A stretch of 32,000 bases of DNA from Geotalea uraniireducens Rf4 (GTDB taxonomy: Bacteria; Desulfobacterota; Desulfuromonadia; Geobacterales; Geobacteraceae), in the NCBI RefSeq assembly GCF_000016745.1, contig NC_009483.1, forward strand, positions 2,370,001 through 2,402,000. Direction: 5' to 3'. Numbering within the stretch: the first letter of the stretch is position 1; each line of letters opens with the position of its first letter. Under the pieces are notes generated by a model that was not told where the DNA came from, searched no databases, and saw only the letters and a program-made list of their open reading frames with translations. Shown piece by piece: positions 2,305-24,092 of the stretch. The position numbers and the translations under genes were made by a program.

Positions 2305-5300
2305 ATGATTTGGGCCATGTTGCTGTCGGCCATGTTTTTGTCAGCCGGAACGGCGGAAGCGTCATTGGTGTGCTACGACTGTCATGGGACACGAAGCACA
2401 GGAGACTACCGGCCTATTGATGCTTCTTATCGAAACATTTCAACCGGCGGATTTCAGGGAACCCATCGCAACCATCTTCCTCTCAATGCCAATGGCGAGA
2501 GTTGCACACCCTGCCATCCCGGGAGCGGTGCATATACCACCAGCCACCGGGACGGGCTGATACAACTATCCAACAACATCAAGAACTCTCCCTTGCCCGC
2601 CGTATACAACCATTACACCACTCCCTTTCCCCAGACTCCATCTCCCTCGCTCGGCTCCTGTACCAATGCCAATTGCCATTTCGAGTCAGTGACGCCGACC
2701 TGGGGGAGCGCATCTTTGATTGCACCGGCCGGATGCAGCACGTGTCACGTCTCGCCGCCGGGAGACGGCAATCATCCAGCGTCAAGCGGCGCCGGCAAAA
2801 AGCACGGTGATTACTTCGGCACGGACACCGGCAGTTGCGGCAAGTGTCACATCGATCACACCAGCGAAGCCAAACCGTTTGCCCATGCCACCAGCGCCGG
2901 CAAACGTCCCTTAATTGTTCAGTTCACAGCCGCCCCCAATGACAACGGCAGTTATAGCGGCGTTGTCAGCTATCCTGAGTATCTTCCCAGCCGGAATCCT
3001 TCGAGAAACGGCACCTGCACCAACCTTTACTGTCACAGCGACGGCAGTGGCGGCGTGGCGAAAACCACGGCCGTGTGGGGTGGAACGCTCGATTGCGCAG
3101 GCTGCCATGACAGTGCCGGCGATACCACAAGCCTCAGTGGCCGACATGGGAAACATACCGGCAATTCAGGCTACGCCTTTACCTGCGAGCGTTGCCACAA
3201 GGGGACCGTAAGCGGTAACGACGCCATCGTTGACATAACCAAGCATGTCAACAAAACTAAAGATATAGTTTTCAAGGAAGGCGGAAACTTTAACAGTACG
3301 GATAAAGGTTGCAGCAATACCTATTGCCACAGCAACGCTGCCGGTGGTCCTCCAACGATTCCCGTTAAATGGACTGATACCGCGTCGATGAAATGTTACT
3401 CCTGCCATAGGGGGCGGACGGTTGACAACACGGCGACTGACTGCGCACAGTTGGGCGGGACCTGGGATGCCGCAAAGGGGTTCTGCACTCCCTACCTGAA
3501 TATGACCTCCAACGGCCATAGCAGACTGGTAGGTCCGCAATGGATCCGCAAGTATCCCTGCAGCTACTGCCACAACGCCACGCTTGATTCGTCCGGCAAC
3601 ATCATCGACAGGACCCGGCATGTAAATGGCGTGAAGGATGTGGTGATCGCCCCGCAATGGGCGATCGTCGGCAGACCTGCACCTGGCTACGACCCGAACG
3701 ACAAGGTCTGTGACAACGTCTACTGTCACAGCGACGGTACTACAAACCCTGAAGACGTTCGCCATTTTGCCTGGACCGCACCCAAAACCGATTGCAACAG
3801 CTGTCATGGCCATCCGCGGGGAACGTGTTCCAATGCCGGTTGTCACGACGGCAGGGTTGACGTTTCAGGCAAGGTATGGACCATCAAAACCGGCTGGACA
3901 GCAGGTCAGGAGTGGAAGGCGGCGACCCCCATGTTCCCCAACCAGGGTACTGGGACGGCCCGGGCCAACTCCCACCAGCGTCACACGGACACCAATTTTA
4001 CCTGCGACCAGTGCCATGCGGCGACCATAACCAACGGCATCTGTACCGATTGCCACGCCGCAGGCATTCCTGCCGGCAGCATGACCGAAGTATCCCATTT
4101 GAACGGCAACTTCCACGTCAACAAAACCAAGGATGTGGTTTTCAAACAGGGTGGTTCGTATAACCAGGTCAACAAAACCTGCTCCAATACCGCCTGCCAT
4201 TCGGGGGGTACCGATCCGCAGTGGGGCGGGTCGGTCAACAGCGCGGTCATCTGTCTGACCTGTCACGGGACCACGGGTCCTGATGTGGACAGTTTCGGTT
4301 TCAATATATACAGTACCCAGACCAAGATCAATCTGACCGAATGGGTGACCAACGGCCATGGCAGGCCTACTTCTGCCGGTCCGTATCCGTCCAGCGGCAA
4401 TCCGGCAGCCAACTTCCCCGGTAATCCCTGCTGGTACTGCCATGACAATAATGTGCTTCATAATGACGCGAACAATCCATTCCGACTGCGACAGCATGCC
4501 CAGTTCGCCAATCGTTTCGAGAAGGAGTGTGTTTACTGCCATATGGTCGGGCTCGACAGCGAATGCCTTTCCTGTCATGACAATAGCGAGTCCCTGGCGC
4601 CACAGCTTACCTCGTTAGCTGAAGATCCTTCCGCACAATGGCCTGACGGCACTGTTGCACCCCGTCCGGACCACAGGGGCATGACCGGAGGTGGCACGTC
4701 ATGTCTGACTTCTTCCTGCCATTATGTTGATCCCGCTGATCCGACTAATGACCTTAAGCGGCATAACGCGGGAGCAGGGGGGTGGTCGGCCGCACAGCAG
4801 ACCGATGTGAAGAATCAGTACACGATGATGGGGGTCTGCCTGAAGTGCCACGACGACGATACCGGCGGAAAATGCACAAGTTGCCATACGGCACCGCCCG
4901 ACAATCCCATGAAGTACACCCTCGGTTTCGACCCCTGCACCGGATTCATCAAGCCCCAGATAGCGCGGGCATCATCGGTCCACTTCGGCTACAAGCACAA
5001 CCGGGAATACCTGCAAGACGGCATCTGGAAGGGTGGCAAATTCTGCTGGGACTGTCACGACCCCCACGGCGACAGCAACATCTACATGATTCAGAACAAG
5101 GTCGCCACTTCCACAGAGGGCACTTTCGGCATTCCCCGGACCAGGGCAGACGTGGTCTTTACCAGAAAGCAGAGCGGGCTGGATTATGCCCGAATCACCG
5201 CCCCCTACAACGGTATCTGCAATGTCTGTCATTCCGCGGGAAGCCAGCATTACCGGGTCGATGGCGGCGATGGCCACAACGCCAGCAGGGTCTGTACCAC

Positions 5301-15620: not shown

Positions 15621-15950
15621 TCAGCGCCTGATGGTATGCTCTTTAGCGACCACACAATCAGGTTTGGCTGTTCGTTTCCCCTTTTTCGAGCGGTTGTTAC
15701 GCGCCTGACGAATGAGACGATTCGCTTTCGCGTTATTCCCAGTGACACCAATTAATAGGTTGCTCCAAAATACCGTATGCTGTTTGAGCCGCTGACCTTT
15801 TTTCAATTATCTTCCAAGAAAACGCTTCAGGCTTCCTTCTCCAAAGAGGGCTTGCACACCGCGTCCGTACTCGAAGATGTTGTCATTTAATTAATAGTCA
15901 GGTTCCTCTTCTGCGATTACCTGTATTCCAGAGCTGTTTTCAGAGAACAT
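15621..15950 (-). pseudogene. 109-codon reading frame interrupted by two in-frame TAA codons (decayed gene, or three small ORFs)
   Basis: On the minus strand, ATG 15950 opens MFSENSSGIQVIAEEEPDY, ended by TAA (15893-15891). LNDNIFEYGRGVQALFGEGSLKRFLGR follows, ended by TAA (15809-15807). The 61-aa track ORF (TTG 15806) then runs to a stop at 15621. All three are in the same frame. I recognise no family. Confidence 0.25.
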
Positions 15951-15959
15951 TGTAAACTT

Positions 15960-15987
15960 ATTGTATTACGGTATTTTACCTTGTCAA
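15960..15987 (-). promoter_or_regulatory. Near-consensus sigma70 promoter (TTGACA-16 nt-TACAAT) reading toward lower coordinates
   Basis: The minus strand reads TTATTGACAAGGTAAAATACCGTAATACAATAAGTTTACAATG. The -35 maps to 15982-15987 and the -10 to 15960-15965. The first ATG (15950) lies 9 nt after the -10, so any mRNA would be nearly leaderless. Confidence 0.45.
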
Positions 15988-16072: not shown

Positions 16073-17371
16073 TTATAATCCAAAAATTCTTCCGATTGTT
16101 CCCGGAGATATGAGGTCTATGGTCATTAACAGGGTCAGAACGATCATGGCGATAACCGTTAGCCATGCCACAAGGTTAAAACCATGGCCATTAGTATAGT
16201 TTCCCATCAGTTTCTTGTCGTTTATAAGAATAAGCATGAAGATGAGTACGAAGGGAAGTACTGCACCGTTGACCACCTGTGAAAGAAACATGATCATTAT
16301 CAATGGTGCATTCGGTGTCAGGATGGTCAACGCGCTGATGATTATAATTATTGTGAACAGCCAGAAAAACTGGGGAGCTTTTCTGAAATCCTTGTCAATT
16401 CCTGATTCCCAGCCCATCCCTTCGCAGATATAGTAGGAAGTGGAGAGTGGGAGAATGCATGCGGCGAACAGGGATGCGTTGAACAGTCCAAATGCAAACA
16501 GTGTCGATGCATAGTTGCCTACAAGAGGCTTGAGGGCAATGGCAGCATCTGCTGCTGTTTCAACTTTCAAACCCTGCATGTGTATGGTAGAAGCGCAGGC
16601 CACGACGATAAAGAAGGCTACCACAATGGCCATCAGGCAACCGACTATGACATCCAGCCGCGAAAAACTGTACTGATCGATGGTGATCCCTTTTTCAACC
16701 ACCGCCGATTGCTGGTAAAACTGCATCCATGGCGCAATCGTTGTTCCAACAACGCCAATCATGGTAATCAGGTAACCGCTGTCGGCTTGAAATGTCGGAA
16801 CTACGGTCGCTTTCAGAATTGTGCTCCATTGCGGTCCGGCCATAAATGCGGCAATCGGGTAAGCGATATACACCATGCAGGCGACCAGGAAGACCTTCTC
16901 CACGACCTTATAAGAGCCTTTGACCACCAGCAGCCAGACCAGAACCGCGCTGATAGGGACCGAGATGTACTTGCTGATACCGAATATTTCAAGACTGGCG
17001 GCGATCCCTGCAAATTCAGATACGGAATTCCCCATATTGGTCAAAAGAAGGGCAATCATCACGTAAAAGGTTACCTTTACCCCGAATGACTCACGAATAA
17101 GGTCTGACAAACCCTTGCCGGTTACGGCTCCCATTCGTGCACACATTTCCTGAATCACCACAAGGGCGATTGTCGTGGGGATCATTACCCATAAAAGTCC
17201 ATAACCGTATCGTGCGCCCGCCAAGGAGTAGGTGGTAATTCCGCCGGCGTCGTTATCGACGTTAGCGGTAATAATGCCCGGGCCGAGAATGGCAAGAAAT
17301 AGAATGATGTTCTTAACGTTGACCTTACGGATTGGTTTGAATAACTTGACGATGCTGATGCCGGTAAACAT
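16073..17371 (-). CDS. Nramp/SLC11-family transporter with the Nramp-related Mg2+ transporter (NRMT/NrmT-like) site signature
   Basis: 432-aa polytopic membrane protein. The Nramp helix-1 block is GPGIITANVDNDAGGITTYS and the helix-6 block is MIGVVGTTIAPWMQFYQQS. The metal-site positions read D-A-G-G and T-x-x-A instead of the canonical D-P-G-N and A-x-x-M. Confidence 0.85.
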   Translation of the reverse strand: MFTGISIVKLFKPIRKVNVKNIILFLAILGPGIITANVDNDAGGITTYSLAGARYGYGLLWVMIPTTIALVVIQEMCARMGAVTGKGLSDLIRESFGVKVTFYVMIALLLTNMGNSVSEFAGIAASLEIFGISKYISVPISAVLVWLLVVKGSYKVVEKVFLVACMVYIAYPIAAFMAGPQWSTILKATVVPTFQADSGYLITMIGVVGTTIAPWMQFYQQSAVVEKGITIDQYSFSRLDVIVGCLMAIVVAFFIVVACASTIHMQGLKVETAADAAIALKPLVGNYASTLFAFGLFNASLFAACILPLSTSYYICEGMGWESGIDKDFRKAPQFFWLFTIIIIISALTILTPNAPLIMIMFLSQVVNGAVLPFVLIFMLILINDKKLMGNYTNGHGFNLVAWLTVIAMIVLTLLMTIDLISPGTIGRIFGL

Positions 17372-17445
17372 AGGTAGATCTGAGCCTCTTTCAGAAAAGC
17401 TGACAAAATGGTCGAGCGTTGATAGTAGATGGTTTATTCATGCAG

Positions 17446-18714
17446 TTAATGATGGTGGTGGCGCCTGCGCCTCAATGCGTAGGGGAGAAACAGTTCCAGA
17501 ATGTCGTCGACGGTAACAATCCCCGCCATTTTGTCTTCTTTATCAAGGACAGGAACGGCTATGAGATTGTATTTCGCGATAATCTCAAGAATTTCTTCCG
17601 GTGCCGCTTCCACATCCACTGTTTTCAGATTTGTGGACATAAGTTCTGAAATGGACGAGTTTGGCGGAGCCATGATAAGCTCCTTAAGGCTCACAACTCC
17701 CTGTAACCGTTCATCCGGATTGGTAACGTAGACGTAATAGACTGTTTCCACATCAGGCGCCAGGAGCCTTACTTCTTTTAAGGCGTCTTCCACCGTCAGT
17801 TCGCTGGATATAGCCAGGAATTCACTGTTCATGAGGCCACCAGCCGTATCTTCCTCGTGTTCCATCAGTTCCTGAATGTCCTCAGCCTCCTCAACATCCA
17901 TAAGCCCCAGCAATTCCTGCGCTTTTTCTTCAGGCAGGTCGCCGAGGACGTCTGCGGCCTCGTCCGGGTCCATCTCTTCCAGGATGTCGGATGCCTGCTC
18001 ACTATCCAACTGGCTTATGACACGACTGCGCAATTCCGGTTCCAGTTCGTGGATGGCTTCACCGGCAGTTTCGGTATCCAGGGAGTTCAAGACGGTCTGG
18101 ATATTTTTCGTCGGAATCTGGGAGATGATATGGGCAAGGTCGGCCGGGTGCAGTTCTTTCATTTGTTCGCGAGCCACGGTCAAGGTGAGGCGTGACAGGT
18201 TCATCTCCAGAAGTTGCACGTATTCCCAGCTTATGTGCTGGTGTGGAAGCTGTTTTTTCAGAATGCCCGCAATTTTCTCTCCCAGATGTTCGTATCCGAG
18301 TCGGCGAAGAAGTCCTCTAAAGCCGATATCTACGAAGAAAATACAGAGATGCTCCTTATAGCTTCCCAGTTTGAGATCATTCACACGGACTACTTTTGCG
18401 CCGTTGACATCGACGATCTGCTTATCGAGAATGTCGCGCTTGACCAGGATTTCGCCATCTTTAGCAATGTATTCCGGCAGGTGGTTGGTCGCACCGGCTA
18501 TGGAAATGACAAAGCGGTTAAAAAGAGAAATGCGGTTCCAGGGGATGGAGAGTATGCGCCGCCCTTTTTTGACCAGCAGGTGCGACACTTCAGGGAACAC
18601 TTCACCGGGGACCATGATCAGGTCCCACAGTTTGCCGATCTCATGGCCTTGGGTGTTGATGACGGTTTTGCCGAGTATTGAACTGATAAAAATTTCACTC
18701 ATGACATTATTCAT
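17446..18714 (-). CDS. Soluble PRC-barrel / MgtE N-domain / CBS-pair protein (MgtE cytoplasmic sensor without the membrane pore)
   Basis: The track ORF starts at 18768, inside the riboswitch terminator, so ATG 18714 (or 18702) is preferred. PRC-like segments are GKTVINTQGHEIGKLWDL and ILDKQIVDVNGAKVVRVNDLKL. MgtE_N-like acidic helices follow (LHPADLAHIISQIP...EEMDPDEAADVLGDLPEEKAQELL...EDIQELMEHEEDTAGGLM). A CBS pair runs to IVTVDDILELF. The protein ends LPYALRRRRHHHH with no hydrophobic helix. Confidence 0.85.
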   Translation of the reverse strand: MNNVMSEIFISSILGKTVINTQGHEIGKLWDLIMVPGEVFPEVSHLLVKKGRRILSIPWNRISLFNRFVISIAGATNHLPEYIAKDGEILVKRDILDKQIVDVNGAKVVRVNDLKLGSYKEHLCIFFVDIGFRGLLRRLGYEHLGEKIAGILKKQLPHQHISWEYVQLLEMNLSRLTLTVAREQMKELHPADLAHIISQIPTKNIQTVLNSLDTETAGEAIHELEPELRSRVISQLDSEQASDILEEMDPDEAADVLGDLPEEKAQELLGLMDVEEAEDIQELMEHEEDTAGGLMNSEFLAISSELTVEDALKEVRLLAPDVETVYYVYVTNPDERLQGVVSLKELIMAPPNSSISELMSTNLKTVDVEAAPEEILEIIAKYNLIAVPVLDKEDKMAGIVTVDDILELFLPYALRRRRHHHH

Positions 18715-18724
18715 AACTGGTTCC

Positions 18725-18760
18725 ACAATATAAAAGGCCCTTTCAGGGAGAAAGGGCCTT
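18725..18760 (-). terminator. Intrinsic terminator forming the expression platform of the M-box riboswitch
   Basis: The minus strand reads AAGGCCCUUU-CUCCCUG-AAAGGGCCUU, followed by UUUAUAUUGUGG. This is a 10-bp GC-rich stem, a 7-nt loop and a U-rich tail, sitting ~10 nt before the start codon. Confidence 0.75.
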
Positions 18761-18780
18761 ATACGCAAAAGGGCACGACT

Positions 18781-18948
18781 TTCCCCTGGTTTGAGTTTCA
18801 GCAGTGCACAACGTAGGTCGAAAATGACAACCAGCTACATTAGATAAAGCCTTAATCCGACTAAACCTGGTCTACCGCATTGGCGTCTTTCGACGTTTCT
18901 GGGCAGTAGCTTTTGTTTGTGCAAACGCCTCTTCCTAACGAGGAATTA
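18781..18948 (-). promoter_or_regulatory. M-box (ykoK-leader class) Mg2+-sensing riboswitch
   Basis: The minus strand reads UUCCUCGUUAGGAAGAGGC-GUUUGCACAAAC-AAAAGCUACUGCCCAGAAACGUCGAAAGACGCCAAUGCGGUAGAC...UCGGAUUAAGGCUUUAUCUAAUGUAGCUGGUUGUC...CCUACGUUGUGCACUGCUGAAACUCAAACCAGGGGAA. These blocks match, in order, the conserved M-box core as I remember the B. subtilis mgtE leader. P1 can form between UUCCUC and GGGGAA. Confidence 0.8.
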
Positions 18949-18957
18949 CGACTAAAA

Positions 18958-18986
18958 TTTATATTCCCGGTCGGATTATTTGTCAA
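18958..18986 (-). promoter_or_regulatory. Near-consensus sigma70 promoter (TTGACA-17 nt-TATAAA) driving the M-box operon
   Basis: The minus strand reads AGGGTTGACAAATAATCCGACCGGGAATATAAATTTTAGT. The -35 maps to 18981-18986 and the -10 to 18958-18963. The predicted start lies a few nt before the riboswitch P1. Confidence 0.65.
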
Positions 18987-19927: not shown

Positions 19928-20353
19928 CTATTGCAATCTTTTTTTCATTTCAAGGACATTGCCGTCACAGACTTTCCTGTAGCAGACGGAATCCATCAGC
20001 GATTTTATCATGTATATGCCGCGACCACGGTCCTCCAACTCCTCAAAGTTAGGTGCAGGGATGGTGTTGATATCGAATCCCTGGCCAAAATCGTAAACCT
20101 TGATGGTTAAATCATCTTCGCAGATGTTTATCACAATATGTACCATTTTGTCAGGGTCGCCGGTGTTTGCGTGCTTGATGGCGTTTACCATCGCCTCGGT
20201 CAGGACCAGGTTCAAATGATAGGCGAGGGTATCCCGGTCGCCGGTATACTTAACCAGTTCCTTGGCGATATCTTCTCCAATTCTGCCGATAAGACTCAAA
20301 TAGCGAGTCTGGTTGGGGACCTTGATATCAACCTCTATTTCATTCTTTTCCAT
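19928..20353 (-). CDS. Anti-sigma-factor-type serine kinase (RsbW/SpoIIAB-like GHKL ATPase)
   Basis: 141 aa. The N-box is EAMVNAIKHAN, G1 is VYDFGQGFD and G2 is GRGIYMIKSLMD. It lies directly downstream of a STAS gene. Confidence 0.85.
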   Translation of the reverse strand: MEKNEIEVDIKVPNQTRYLSLIGRIGEDIAKELVKYTGDRDTLAYHLNLVLTEAMVNAIKHANTGDPDKMVHIVINICEDDLTIKVYDFGQGFDINTIPAPNFEELEDRGRGIYMIKSLMDSVCYRKVCDGNVLEMKKRLQ

Positions 20354-20372
20354 CTGAGCCTCACCTTAATAA

Positions 20373-20708
20373 CTAAAAGTTGTCCAGTGCTTCGGAAGTG
20401 GAGGAGAATATCTCGAATACCCTGTGCAGTCTTGTCAGTTCAAACATCGACCTTACCTGTGATTGGAGTGAAGACAGTTTAAGGATTCCCTGATGGGAAA
20501 TGGCGTTTTTAAAGCCCGAAACGAGCGCTCCCAAACCTGAGCTGTCGATAAAGCGAACGTCCTTCAGGTCTACCAGCACATTCTTCTTGCCTTCTTCAAA
20601 AAGTCTCTGCACCTCTATTTTCAACTCTCCAGAGTTGTGGGCGTCGAGTCTCTCCTCTTTTACATAGATAATTACGACGTCATTCCTTGTTTCGGTTTGA
20701 AGATTCAT
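20373..20708 (-). CDS. STAS-domain anti-anti-sigma factor (RsbV/SpoIIAA-like)
   Basis: 111 aa. VLVDLKDVRFIDSSGLGALV contains the conserved phosphorylatable Ser context (DSSGL). GGAG lies 6 nt before the ATG. Confidence 0.88.
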   Translation of the reverse strand: MNLQTETRNDVVIIYVKEERLDAHNSGELKIEVQRLFEEGKKNVLVDLKDVRFIDSSGLGALVSGFKNAISHQGILKLSSLQSQVRSMFELTRLHRVFEIFSSTSEALDNF

Positions 20709-20762
20709 GCCATGCTCCTGTGAGTTAACTCGCTGTTTATTTTGATTTTGCCTTTAAATATA

Positions 20763-20791
20763 GTTATATAGCAATGCGGCTGGTGGTTCAA
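20763..20791 (-). promoter_or_regulatory. Candidate sigma70 promoter for the STAS/kinase pair (TTGAAC-17 nt-TATAAC)
   Basis: The minus strand reads TTGAACCACCAGCCGCATTGCTATATAAC within the 144-nt gap upstream of the STAS gene. Confidence 0.35.
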
Positions 20792-20852
20792 CTAAATATG
20801 TTGTTCAGCCGGTAAGTCTTGATTTTCGTAGAACGTTTTCAGCCCGCTGCTT

Positions 20853-23800
20853 TCAATCTACTTTCATGACAACCATGGAAATATCGTCCTGCAGCAAAGT
20901 GGATGAAGTATATTCCGTTACCTCCTTAAAGATCCTCTCGATAATTTTCTGGGGCTCATTTTCAAAAACTTCAGTCAAAACAGTGCAGAGCCTTTCTGTG
21001 CCGAATAATTCCCCAGTTACAGTTTGTGCTTCAATAATTCCATCAGTGTAGAAAAGTACCAAGTCACCTTTCTGCAATTGGATACTCTTTCCTTCAAAGG
21101 AGACAGCACGGTTGACTCCAAGAATAAGACCTTCTGCGTCCAGTTCGGTGCAGGCCAACTTTCCACGTCGGAGAAGGATGGGGGGATTGTGGCCGGCGTT
21201 GGCATAGTTGAGGACGCGGCTTTCTGCGTTGTAATTCGCATAAAACATGGTAATGAAGAGTTCGGCTCTGGTCAGATCTTCGTAGAGAAGGTCGTTGAGG
21301 ACGGAAAGTATATCGGTACAGGAAGTCGTCGAATGTACTTGAGCCCGCAGAACGCTGCGCGTTTCAACCATTATCAATGCAGCTCCGACGCTGTGACCTG
21401 ACACATCGGCTATGATCATGTCGATATCGTTTTCACCGCGCAGAAAGTAGTCATAATAGTCGCCTCCCACATGGGCTGCAGGTACACAGTAGCAGGCAAA
21501 ACGAACGCCGGGCAAATATGGGAACGAAGCCGGCAGGAGCGAAAGTTGTATCTGCTTTGCAATTTCCATATCTCTGAGCACTCTGGCGTTTTCCAGCAGG
21601 GCTTCTTCTTTTTGCTGTCGTTCCTTTTCCTTGGCTTCCCGTTCAGAGACGATCTTTACCGCCTGAGCCAATTGTCCGGCAAGACTGCCGAGAAGCTGAA
21701 GGAACGGTTCGGTGAAAAGGCCCACTATCGACTTTGAGAATACCGAGAGAATCCCCATCGGGGGGTCCCCTTCACTGGCGATAGGGATATGGGCGAATGA
21801 CTTTATTCCTTCGTGCTCCATGATTTCTTTAGACTTGGGTTTGGTAAGATACTGCGTGTCATTGACGAATTCCGCTCTATTGCCCAGGAATGCTTCACCT
21901 ATGTGGGTGTCGATTTCCGGCAGCCTGCCGTGTCGGGTAATCTGCTGGTTTCCTGTGCCGCGGTAACAACGGACGGTTAAAATTCCCTGTTCATCCACCA
22001 GCCTGATAACGGCCAGATCAAACTTGAATTCCTTACGGAGCAATTCAAGGAGATCTTCCATGATGATCTGCAGGTCGAGGGACCGGTTCATGATTTCCGA
22101 AGCCCGTAGTCTGACGTAAAGCGCTTCCCGACTCTGGTCGAGTGAGGTGCGGACTGTGCTGAAGATGTCGTACACGGACTCCATTTTTGAGCCGATGTCG
22201 CTCAGGTAGCTTTCGACGATGGCTCCGGCAGCTGCTGCGCCCAGAGAACCGGCCAGTGTTTTCTCGATAAATCGTTTGAGATTCGGCAGTTCAAACTCCG
22301 ACACTCCGCCTTTTCCGTCGATTTCCCTGTTTCCCAGGTATTCACTTATGGCGGAGTGGGCCTGAGTTTCTCCGATGAATTTTGTCATGAGATTTACAAA
22401 TTGCAGGATCGTTACCGGTTTCGAGAGCCGCTTCGTTTCCCACGGCATCTTGATTTGCTCCGGTTCAAAAACGTCAACGAATCTTTTTACCTGCTCCTGT
22501 TCACGTTCATCCTGGCCCAATATGATGGAAAGTGCCAGATAAGCGCCGATATTGAACAGCATGCTCCAGAACAGGGAGTGGCTCCAGATATCAAAGCCGA
22601 CAAGACCGAAAAGTTGTGTGGGTCTCAAAAAGTCCAGACCGAAGGGCCCTTTTGTCAGAATATCGCTTTGCCACCATCCTGATTTCACAAAGGAAGGGAC
22701 GAGCAAGGTGTAAAACCAGATTATGAAGCCGAGGAGCATGCCGGTTATTGCCCCGGCCTTGTTTCCCCTGTGCCAGTAGAGCCCGCCGATCAGAGCGGGG
22801 CCGAACTGGGCGGCGGCGGCAAAAGACATGAGCCCCATGGTGACCAGCATATAGGTTTCGCCAACGATGTTCTGGTAAAAATATCCGAGTAAGACGACCA
22901 GGAAGATGCCGAAGCGCTTCATGTTGATGAGCAGAACCGGGAACCAGCTTCGCGGTTTCAGCCTGACCACGACCGGCATGATCAGGTGGTTGAGAAACAT
23001 GGTGGAAATTGCAACGGATTCGACCATAACCATCCCGGCTGCGGCGGAAAAACCACCAAGAAAAGCGATCAATGCCAGCCAGGAATGACCGCTCAGCAAG
23101 GGGAGGGTGAGAACAAAATAATCGGCATTGGCGCTGTTGCCGGTAAAGAGGATTCCTCCCAGGGCGATGGGCATGACAAAGAAGTTTATCAAAAACATGT
23201 AGACGGGGAACAGCCACATGGCCTTTTTTATATGCTCCTCGTTGGAGTTTTCGATGACCATGATGTGAAACTGACGGGGGAGCAACATGATGGCTCCCAT
23301 GGAGAGGTAGAGCATGGTGAACCAGTTTGCATAGGAGATTTCCCCTGGTTCACCGAAGGTTGTCAGGCGGTTGAGGAGTACCTGGTTTGCATTCATCCGG
23401 GAAAAAATGTCTTCAAAACCGTCAAAAAGAATATAGGTAGTAAATAAGCCGACCAGTAAATAAGCCCCGAGCTTTACGATCGATTCCACTGCTATGGCCG
23501 CCACGAGCCCTTCATGTCGCTCTGAAGAAACCAGGCGCCGAGCGCCGAAGATTACGGCAAAGGTGCTGAGTATCAGCGCGGCAAAAAAGCCTGTTTGGAA
23601 TGTCAATGGGGAACGGCCCTGCATCAGTGGGAGCTGGACCGACGGGTGACCGCAGATGATGTCAAAGGTTGTGGTTACCGCCTTGAGCTGCACAGCTATA
23701 TAAGGTGTTATGCCGAGGATGATGATGATGGTAACCAGTGCCCCGAGCCATTGCGATTTCCCGTAGCGCGAGCTGATAAAGTCGGCTATGGAGGTGATGT

Positions 23801-24092
23801 TGTTTTCCTTGGCGATTCGCACAATCTTGCGCAGCAGGAACCACCAGGAAAATGCGGTGAGTGTGGGGCCAAGATATACGAGAAGAAAATCGAGACCGGT
23901 TGTGGCAGCCTTCCCGACGCTGCCGTAATAGGTCCATGTGGTAGCATAAACAGCGATGGAAAGGGAATAGATATAGGGGTTGGAGATGATGCTTTTACCC
24001 TTCTCCTGCTTCTTGTCAGCGTAGTAAGCGATCAGGAAGAGGAAAAATATGTAAAGGAGGGAGACCCCGATGACCAGTTTGATGCTCAGCAT
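20853..24092 (-). CDS. Sodium:solute symporter (SSS/SLC5)-like membrane domain fused to GAF and PP2C (SpoIIE/RsbU-type) phosphatase
   Basis: 1079 aa. Residues ~1-525 form ~13 hydrophobic helices with an SSS-like N-terminus (YATTWTYYGSVGKAATTGLDFLLVYLGP). Residues ~665-812 are GAF-like. Residues ~845-1079 are PP2C (AAHVGGDYYDYF, MIIADVSGHSVGAALIM, NAGHNPPILL, LVLFYTDGIIEA, QDDISMVVMKV). Confidence 0.88.
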   Translation of the reverse strand: MLSIKLVIGVSLLYIFFLFLIAYYADKKQEKGKSIISNPYIYSLSIAVYATTWTYYGSVGKAATTGLDFLLVYLGPTLTAFSWWFLLRKIVRIAKENNITSIADFISSRYGKSQWLGALVTIIIILGITPYIAVQLKAVTTTFDIICGHPSVQLPLMQGRSPLTFQTGFFAALILSTFAVIFGARRLVSSERHEGLVAAIAVESIVKLGAYLLVGLFTTYILFDGFEDIFSRMNANQVLLNRLTTFGEPGEISYANWFTMLYLSMGAIMLLPRQFHIMVIENSNEEHIKKAMWLFPVYMFLINFFVMPIALGGILFTGNSANADYFVLTLPLLSGHSWLALIAFLGGFSAAAGMVMVESVAISTMFLNHLIMPVVVRLKPRSWFPVLLINMKRFGIFLVVLLGYFYQNIVGETYMLVTMGLMSFAAAAQFGPALIGGLYWHRGNKAGAITGMLLGFIIWFYTLLVPSFVKSGWWQSDILTKGPFGLDFLRPTQLFGLVGFDIWSHSLFWSMLFNIGAYLALSIILGQDEREQEQVKRFVDVFEPEQIKMPWETKRLSKPVTILQFVNLMTKFIGETQAHSAISEYLGNREIDGKGGVSEFELPNLKRFIEKTLAGSLGAAAAGAIVESYLSDIGSKMESVYDIFSTVRTSLDQSREALYVRLRASEIMNRSLDLQIIMEDLLELLRKEFKFDLAVIRLVDEQGILTVRCYRGTGNQQITRHGRLPEIDTHIGEAFLGNRAEFVNDTQYLTKPKSKEIMEHEGIKSFAHIPIASEGDPPMGILSVFSKSIVGLFTEPFLQLLGSLAGQLAQAVKIVSEREAKEKERQQKEEALLENARVLRDMEIAKQIQLSLLPASFPYLPGVRFACYCVPAAHVGGDYYDYFLRGENDIDMIIADVSGHSVGAALIMVETRSVLRAQVHSTTSCTDILSVLNDLLYEDLTRAELFITMFYANYNAESRVLNYANAGHNPPILLRRGKLACTELDAEGLILGVNRAVSFEGKSIQLQKGDLVLFYTDGIIEAQTVTGELFGTERLCTVLTEVFENEPQKIIERIFKEVTEYTSSTLLQDDISMVVMKVD

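Follow-up and report, generated by a model that had tools for sequence, protein, structure and literature searches.

A free-standing MgtE cytoplasmic module encoded ahead of an NRMT-type transporter in Geotalea uraniireducens

The window considered here is the whole analysed stretch of 32,000 nucleotides (nt) from Geotalea uraniireducens Rf4 (NC_009483.1, positions 2,370,001 to 2,402,000). On its reverse strand lies a gene (17446-18714, stop codon included) whose product, a free-standing protein of 422 amino acids (aa) with the putative domain order PRC-PRC-MgtE_N-CBS-CBS, was delineated by open reading frame (ORF), Pfam, NCBIfam and AlphaFold2 (AF2) analysis and is referred to below as the sensor. 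The next gene on the same strand encodes an NRMT-type Nramp, and both genes lie behind an M-box Mg2+ riboswitch. NRMTs are a fourth class of bacterial Mg2+ importers. They have neither proton coupling nor a cytoplasmic domain, and how Mg2+ overload is avoided is the question at stake; as a regulator the conserved partner readily suggests itself, and it was flagged in 2014 and left out of later structural and functional work.

A preliminary description of this locus had put forward regulation of the transporter in trans by the sensor, with no experimentally characterised example of such a pairing in view. Both the pairing and the idea of feedback had been published by Shin et al. (2014; PMC4072509; PLoS Genet 10:e1004429), and the window locus is an instance of this already known operon type with its published hypothesis. 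In that study NrmT was discovered via M-boxes upstream of Nramp-like genes, the M-box-Nramp loci being found "mostly in Clostridia and Deltaproteobacteria". An MgtE-like gene adjoined most NrmT genes, the arrangement was termed "mgtE-nramp operons", and the MgtE-like partner was proposed to be a cytoplasmic feedback regulator or a chaperone. The partner goes unmentioned in the later structural study of EleNRMT (PMC8806188), and our literature searches found no later characterisation of it. New here are the match of the sensor to the entire cytoplasmic part of PRC-bearing MgtE channels, the conserved ligands of three MgtE sites (Mg4, Mg6, Mg7), the exchange of the MgtE plug helix for a basic tail, the restriction of the His run and of the M-boxes found to Geobacteraceae, a variant that ends in a transmembrane (TM)-like helix, and an orphan clade.

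The sensor gene and its operon

The longest mechanical ORF at this site runs from 17446 to 18768 on the reverse strand (440 aa). An ATG at 18714 gives the 422-aa protein, which starts with MNNVMSEIF and ends with LPYALRRRRHHHH, and the coding region was taken as 17446-18714 because the M-box and a terminator hairpin sit upstream of that ATG. All residue numbers refer to the 422-aa sensor; the Pfam scan used the 440-aa ORF, and the numbers that it printed are 18 higher.

Residues 5-69 (18508-18702, reverse strand) form a PRC-barrel domain (PF05239, 29.7-30.2 bits against a cutoff of 21.2). A second PRC-like beta-barrel with a helical hairpin was assigned to residues ~92-168 (18211-18441, reverse strand) using hhalign, AF2 and conservation. 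When this segment was scanned alone against Pfam no match was obtained, while the family profiles of the two segments aligned in hhalign with 95.4% probability (E 1.9e-8, 43 columns) and AF2 predicted beta strands at 99-129 and a second barrel. It carries LDKQIVD..G.KVVRVNDL, the most conserved motif of the family outside the MgtE part. These profile and model data weakly suggest that the second segment is an internal duplicate of the first barrel, and of the two PRC-like segments named in the preliminary description the first is a Pfam-level assignment and the second a tentative one. The MgtE_N helical domain follows at residues 188-289 (17848-18153, reverse strand; PF03448, 99.2 bits) and the CBS pair at residues ~295-409 (17488-17832, reverse strand; PF00571 in two stretches, 66.3 bits). 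The C-terminal tail LPYALRRRRHHHH, residues 410-422 (17449-17487, reverse strand), carries a Pro plus an Arg/Lys cluster, was delimited from the alignment and has a low AF2 predicted local distance difference test (pLDDT) score.

The Pfam scan gave no match to the MgtE membrane domain (PF01769) in the sensor. Of the 450 positions of the TIGR00400 model for mgtE only 18-250 aligned, with a score of 179.2 bits that stays below the cutoff of 232.75. No TM helix was found, the Kyte-Doolittle maximum over 19 residues being 1.39. The AF2 model has a mean pLDDT of 90.5. Its residues ~178-409 superpose on the Mg2+-bound structure 2YVY with a Foldseek TM-score of 0.86 (target-normalised) and a root-mean-square deviation of 1.9 A, and 2YVY also matches the sensor in phmmer (E 1.6e-41). 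The sensor thus fits the MgtE-channel class by its N domain and the fold of its CBS pair, and not by membrane domain, plug helix or equivalog score. The ORF with an MgtE_N domain and a CBS pair and without a hydrophobic helix, as first read from the letters, is borne out by Pfam, NCBIfam and hydrophobicity, and the search with family models agrees with that reading on the PRC, MgtE_N and CBS families as well as on the absent PF01769. The sensor is an intact free-standing MgtE cytoplasmic module.

The window is Geotalea-like, with 84% identity to G. toluenoxydans. Nonsynonymous divergence (dN) of the sensor gene from that of G. toluenoxydans is 0.095 with synonymous sites saturated, which points to strong purifying selection, and sensor homologues of the same length number in the thousands. 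In databases the ~420-aa homologues go under the names "magnesium transporter", "membrane protein", "MotE/YlmC with PRC-barrel domain" and "CBS domain-containing protein"; the first two are misleading for proteins without a membrane domain.

The M-box aptamer (RF00380) occupies 18777-18949 on the reverse strand and was detected at 133.7 bits against a gathering threshold of 44 (E 3.6e-30), full-length over model positions 1-169. About 9 nt upstream of it ends a candidate sigma-70 promoter (18958-18986, reverse strand), read by eye as TTGACA (18986-18981), a 17-nt spacer and TATAAA (18963-18958); the promoter scan did not return this site, as it demands T at position 6 of the -10 element, and TTGACA-17-TATAAA may be the promoter of the operon. 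An intrinsic terminator was found by the terminator scan at 18726-18760 (reverse strand), with an 11-bp GC-rich stem, AAGGCCCTTTC/GAAAGGGCCTT, followed by the U-run TTATATTG. Its hairpin proper covers 18734-18760 and is present in both the minimum free energy and the centroid folds. It forms the expression platform of the riboswitch.

The sensor gene is separated from the Nramp gene by an intergenic spacer of 74 nt (17372-17445, reverse strand), where the preliminary description had counted 75 nt; the spacer holds an AAGAGG motif resembling a Shine-Dalgarno sequence. The terminator scan found no terminator between the two genes, and the earlier placing of one M-box ahead of both is confirmed. 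The Nramp gene (16073-17371, reverse strand) encodes 432 aa, matches PF01566 at 365 bits and has the DAGG and TTIA-PW motifs. Among structures in the PDB its best match is EleNRMT (7QIA, 8.7e-124, 416.8 bits), as compared with ~1e-31 and at most 113.6 bits for MntH, and in NRMTs the site signature DxxG (alpha1) / TxxA-T (alpha6) replaces DPGN/MPH (PMC8806188). The downstream gene can accordingly be placed in the NRMT clade, as the preliminary description had it, and Mg2+ transport is predicted for its product.

Distribution of the sensor-NRMT pairing and of the M-box

GTDB species, each represented by one genome, were scanned for relatives of the sensor; 331 were obtained, and the analysis was continued with the 80 best loci. 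These came from Geobacteraceae, Desulfocapsa, Nitrospirota, Chloroflexota/Limnocylindria, Armatimonadota, Dormibacterota and one Bacillota metagenome-assembled genome (MAG). At 77 of these 80 loci, from at least six phyla, the next gene downstream of the sensor gene is an Nramp in the same orientation. Of the other three loci, two are cut off by the end of a contig, which leaves 77 of 78 assessable loci with the pair. Among the 77 partner Nramps, 76 have the alpha6 motif T-T-I-[AT]-P-[WY] and 71 the TM1 motif D-A-G-G, the misses including a gene shortened by a contig end (L059) and one that reads DASG (L024). A 4-nt overlap of the sensor stop codon with the Nramp start codon was seen at 45 loci. 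The arrangement was the same in three of four more distant representatives of 50%-identity clusters. Starting from the transporter gave the same picture: a gene for a 450-aa PRC-MgtE_N-CBS protein lies 4 nt upstream of the gene for a Paraeggerthella protein with 91% identity to the EleNRMT construct used for crystallisation.

Judged from gene order, the pairing goes beyond chance, and functional linkage is statistically overwhelming within the clade of the window. The expectation of the preliminary description that the soluble protein should accompany NRMT genes elsewhere is borne out by the assessable loci and by the locus of the EleNRMT homologue. As a homologue of the MgtE cytoplasmic part encoded adjacent to and in the same direction as a putative NRMT, the sensor corresponds to the MgtE-like NrmT partner described by Shin et al. 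(2014).

One locus at first suggested a natural fusion of the two proteins (L062, Chloroflexi MAG VBFI01000077.1, 4001-6560), as sensor and Nramp lie there in a single ORF of 851 aa. It was rejected as Rosetta-stone evidence because its siblings show that a 1-nt frameshift occurs just before the usual 4-nt overlap (LMLARVEEE against LMLPRGWKKRS at the junction), probably through misassembly or recent mutation. Some Chloroflexota loci have two NRMT-like Nramp paralogues, the second in tandem downstream (L030, 5338-7831) or on the opposite strand (L065, 7310-8545).

Beside the paired loci stands a group of sensor relatives with other neighbours. The locus of the Bacillota MAG (L025, JAMDEM010000101.1, 2715-5254) has a fluoride riboswitch (RF01734), then a gene of the Na_H_Exchanger family and then a PRC-MgtE_N-CBS gene, without an Nramp; at no other of the 80 loci does the sensor adjoin another transporter family. 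The four proteins nearest to that of L025 (P0392, P0393, P0395 and P0398; 53-59% identity; on L086, L087, L088 and a JGI contig) have no transporter neighbour. On two contigs of this orphan clade the sensor gene follows 4 nt behind a gene for a bacterial-microcompartment (BMC, PF00936) shell protein and is near a gene of the LPG_synthase_TM family. The orphan proteins retain the Trp/Pro plus Arg/Lys tail. Because this sister clade of the soluble protein adjoins no Nramp, the module is, on present gene neighbourhoods, not strictly an NRMT subunit.

M-boxes were searched for by Rfam covariance-model scans of 52 loci and by nhmmer over all 88 loci. An M-box was found in 12 of 15 assessable Geobacteraceae loci, at the same position as in the window, and in this lineage the pair is under riboswitch control. 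At the loci of Desulfocapsa, Nitrospirota, Chloroflexota, Armatimonadota, Dormibacterota and Eggerthellaceae that the Rfam scans covered, no M-box was detected. The nhmmer search of all 88 loci returned the same 12 M-boxes only, with a sequence-only model built from Geobacteraceae that divergent M-boxes may escape. On current evidence the M-box as a universal companion of the pairing was rejected. Of the two layers of Mg2+ feedback, one RNA and one protein, envisaged in the preliminary description, the RNA layer would accordingly apply only to the lineages with an M-box.

Directly downstream of the NRMT gene of the window lies a 6S RNA gene (RF00013, 52.2 bits; 15758-15937, reverse strand) with a strong sigma-70-like, promoter-like site (TTGACA-16-TACAAT) at 15960-15987, and this NRMT-6S synteny repeats in Geobacteraceae loci L004-L006, L008, L012-L014 and L016. 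On the other side of the operon the lgt gene (up to 19899, forward strand) is divergent from it, followed by a partner-switching module at 19928-24092 (reverse strand) that comprises a 1079-aa protein with GAF and SpoIIE/PP2C phosphatase domains, a STAS anti-anti-sigma factor and an HATPase_c_2 anti-sigma kinase. The long N-terminal region of the 1079-aa protein appears by eye to be multi-helix and hydrophobic and has no Pfam match.

Metal sites, C-terminal tail and relation to PRC-bearing MgtE channels

The metal sites were mapped onto the sensor by alignment to Thermus thermophilus MgtE (TtMgtE) using the TtMgtE site definitions, and conservation was calculated over 78 homologues. The Mg4 ligands D91 and D247 of TtMgtE correspond to D251 and D404 of the sensor and the Mg6 ligand D95 to D255, all invariant (78 of 78). 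At Mg7, E59 corresponds to E219, with E or D in 77 of the 78 sequences, and at Mg5, D250 corresponds to E407, with E or D in 71. According to this alignment the cytosolic Mg2+ ligands of MgtE are largely kept in the sensor, with Mg5 half kept.

The CBS pair was also compared with the ATP site of TtMgtE. Residues Y327, K/R344 and D/E345 match the ATP contacts Y170, R187 and D188, either unchanged or with a similar residue. In 76 of 78 homologues Leu takes the place of F227, which stacks on the adenine in TtMgtE, and the position of N203 is variable; in TtMgtE the F227A mutation abolishes ATP binding. Binding of ATP by the sensor is, on these residues, doubtful.

At the C-terminus the plug residues E258 and D259 of TtMgtE (Mg2, Mg3) align to R415 and R416, positions with K or R in 71 and 70 of the 78 sequences, respectively, and over positions 415-417 as a whole K or R occurs in 70-75 of the 78. 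The soluble forms end in VDDxxExxLPxxx[RK]3-4, and full-length channels read VDDxxDVxxEExxED at this place. Among 116 clusters of soluble proteins the tail is basic in 78 and short or otherwise composed in 38, and two end in a hydrophobic helix. The C-terminal RRRRHHHH of the window sensor had been taken for a possible metal- or membrane-interacting tag. Its Arg/Lys cluster is indeed broadly conserved. The His run occurs in Geobacteraceae only and is variable even there (HHHH, YHHH, YRQH, NLYH, QTNY), and poly-His as a conserved metal tag was rejected for this reason.

A different ending was found in the Eggerthellaceae partner (L081/L082, 2644-3996; from Paraeggerthella, with the EleNRMT-like gene at 4001-5296), a 450-aa protein at a locus without an M-box. 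It ends in an acidic plug-like helix, AWDAIEEDVSSD, followed by a hydrophobic TM-like helix, IVGGIIGAVLFLVLYTMALFQII, and from its sequence looks like an MgtE cut after TM1. P0265 and P0225 have a hydrophobic C-terminal helix too.

For the origin of the module a representative protein library clustered at 50% identity was searched in full. This gave 12,861 matches, of which the best 150 clusters were examined: 122 were soluble proteins of ~400-460 aa and 23 were full-length proteins of ~593-656 aa. These 23 PRC-MgtE channels align with the sensor over residues 8-409, the PRC barrel and the putative second barrel included (35-44% identity), and then run into PF01769. Among ~600-aa PRC-bearing proteins PF01769 was detected in P0126, P0146 and P0194; P0165 and P0210 gave no PF01769 match despite similar length and a hydrophobic C-terminal sequence. 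The sensor can thus be regarded, on the alignments, as the complete cytoplasmic part of a PRC-bearing MgtE subfamily. Our literature search found no paper that co-mentions PRC barrels and MgtE and none that discusses a PRC-MgtE subfamily. The PRC barrels were also considered as an adaptation for docking to NRMT, which was rejected because the full-length PRC-MgtE channels carry them too. In a neighbour-joining tree of 146 representatives most full-length channels group together and are interleaved with soluble forms, and the tree fixes neither the number nor the direction of fission events.

Proposed role, alternative explanations and comparison with known systems

We propose, at about even confidence, that the sensor lies close to the membrane, responds to divalent cations in the cytosol (mainly Mg2+) and acts in trans on the NRMT of its own operon. 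The direction of regulation would be inhibition at high Mg2+, a tentative choice held at well under even. The sensor gene and the NRMT gene would be co-transcribed from the promoter attenuated by the M-box. At high cytosolic Mg2+ the sensor would compact and restrain the NRMT, thereby supplying a fast post-translational shut-off to a carrier without H+ coupling or a cytoplasmic domain of its own, and the riboswitch would add a slower transcriptional control. The Pro-kinked Arg/Lys tail, or in Eggerthellaceae the acidic helix plus the TM-like helix, may hold the module at the membrane or at the transporter surface; these basic or hydrophobic C-terminal elements sit where MgtE joins its membrane domain. 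Such a gating role is plausible because EleNRMT is monomeric, has 11 TM helices and no extramembrane domains, and is not H+-coupled (PMC8806188). Binding to the NRMT, dependence of the sensor on Mg2+ through compaction, and inhibition rather than activation are the parts of this scheme that we infer.

A broader version of the proposal, to which we give somewhat less than an even chance, is that PRC-MgtE_N-CBS is a portable sensor that split from a PRC-MgtE channel and came to gate the unrelated LeuT-fold NRMT, with the plug exchanged for a polybasic tail or a TM-like anchor and with the orphans controlling other targets. If so, it would rank among the few documented examples in which a channel regulatory domain has been re-used in trans across transporter superfamilies, and all published NRMT biochemistry, including that of EleNRMT, would have been done with an incomplete complex. 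Experimental handles are at hand in the partner of the EleNRMT homologue with its TM-like helix and in the ligands D251, D255, D404 and E219; the tail at the position of the plug helix is the likely output element, and the orphan clade may be a natural control.

Several observations weigh against regulation of the NRMT by the sensor. The Mg5 ligand D226 of TtMgtE corresponds to N383 in the sensor (N in 56 and D in 20 of the 78 homologues), and D226N/D250A is the very mutation that disabled Mg5 in TtMgtE. The acidic plug helix is absent from the sensor of the window, so that MgtE gating is not simply transferable. The locus of P0265 has no Nramp, nor has the sister clade described above an Nramp neighbour. 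Ca_c0685, Ca_c3329 and reconstituted EleNRMT transport Mg2+ without the partner (PMC4072509; PMC8806188). In the sole test of the published proposal, Acp2976 and Acp2977 of A. capsulatum were co-expressed in a B. subtilis strain deficient in Mg2+ transport and the rescue was not improved (PMC4072509). This negative result discriminates poorly, as the assay scored better rescue and inhibition would not show; a brake would appear as hypersensitivity to Mg2+, Co2+ or Ni2+. Transport of Mg2+ has been shown only for Ca_c0685, Ca_c3329 and EleNRMT, and the A. capsulatum member preferred Mn2+.

Among the alternatives, the partner could be an assembly, stability or activating subunit of the NRMT instead of a Mg2+ brake; it would pack on the 11-TM carrier, which in the native host would depend on it for stability or full activity. 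The 4-nt coupling at 45 loci suggests stoichiometric co-production, NRMT homologues are unstable in detergent to the point that EleNRMT needed 11 consensus mutations (PMC8806188), and the hydrophobic TM-like helix of the Eggerthellaceae partner would suit such a role. We nevertheless hold it unlikely, given that NRMTs on their own complement B. subtilis deficient in Mg2+ transport and are active in liposomes, that co-expression of the A. capsulatum pair brought no improvement, and that invariant Mg2+-ligand residues are hard to explain for a purely structural protein. To the same low degree we credit an autonomous cytosolic sensor of divalent cations whose target is not the NRMT and which is merely co-regulated with it under Mg2+ limitation. 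The orphans would fit this picture, as L025 with its fluoride riboswitch and Na_H_Exchanger gene, P0392, P0393, P0395, P0398 and P0265 all do without an Nramp and the tails of the orphans likewise combine Pro/Trp with Arg/Lys. The gene order, however, is kept in 77 of 78 loci of at least six phyla, with or without an M-box and with frequent 4-nt overlaps, and order conserved to this degree is what one usually sees where gene products interact, beyond mere co-regulation.

Adenine-nucleotide sensing via the CBS pair, instead of or along with Mg2+, would couple the NRMT to the energy state, much as ATP acts in MgtE; the three matching ATP contacts (Y327, K/R344, D/E345) speak for it, the Leu in place of the stacking F227 in 76 of 78 homologues and the variable N203 position speak against it, and we judge it improbable. 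Still more improbable appears a metallochaperone or cytoplasmic Mg2+/Mn2+ buffer taking the ion from the inward-facing vestibule of the NRMT, the alternative raised by Shin et al. (2014). The many conserved acidic sites, the very acidic N domain and a pair in A. capsulatum that appears to handle Mn2+ and not Mg2+ would be in keeping with it; a stoichiometric chaperone would however add little to millimolar cytosolic free Mg2+, the MgtE sites bind Mg2+ weakly (millimolar), and no chaperone-like target is known. A decaying remnant of a truncated or frameshifted mgtE has practically no claim left and is already refuted by the data, in line with the preliminary description. Only the missing TM domain speaks for it, against which stand a length (~420 aa) and a tail shared by thousands of homologues, the dN of 0.095 with saturated dS, the confident AF2 model, and the 74-nt gap that runs directly into the Nramp gene and leaves no space for pore-coding sequence.

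Compared with known systems, the window locus comes closest to the operons of Shin et al. (2014), namely the Ca_c0685 locus of C. acetobutylicum and Acp2976-Acp2977 of A. capsulatum, which have the same gene order and the same proposed role and often an M-box. Nothing essential differs from the window locus, save that the partner is split into two genes in C. acetobutylicum and single in the window. The term "PRC-barrel" does not occur in the text of that paper, nor are the basic tail or the full-length PRC-MgtE channels mentioned in it (PMC4072509). The full-length PRC-PRC-MgtE_N-CBS-MgtE(TM) channels of ~600 aa (P0126, P0146, P0194) are nearer to the sensor than TtMgtE is, and differ in continuing after the CBS pair as the acidic plug and PF01769 where the soluble forms end in LPxxx[RK]3-4. 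With the cytosolic domain of TtMgtE (2YVY/2ZY9/5X9G) the sensor has the N domain, the CBS pair and the ligands of Mg4, Mg6 and Mg7 in common; it lacks the 5-helix pore and the acidic plug, has two extra N-terminal barrels, the second of them putative, and mostly has Asn for D226 at Mg5 and Leu for F227. The M-box-mgtE system of B. subtilis is alike in its two-layer logic, with an M-box attenuator plus an MgtE-type sensor on the transporter, whereas in the window sensor and transporter are two polypeptides and the transporter has the LeuT fold instead of the MgtE pore; no RNA layer was found in most lineages that have the pair.

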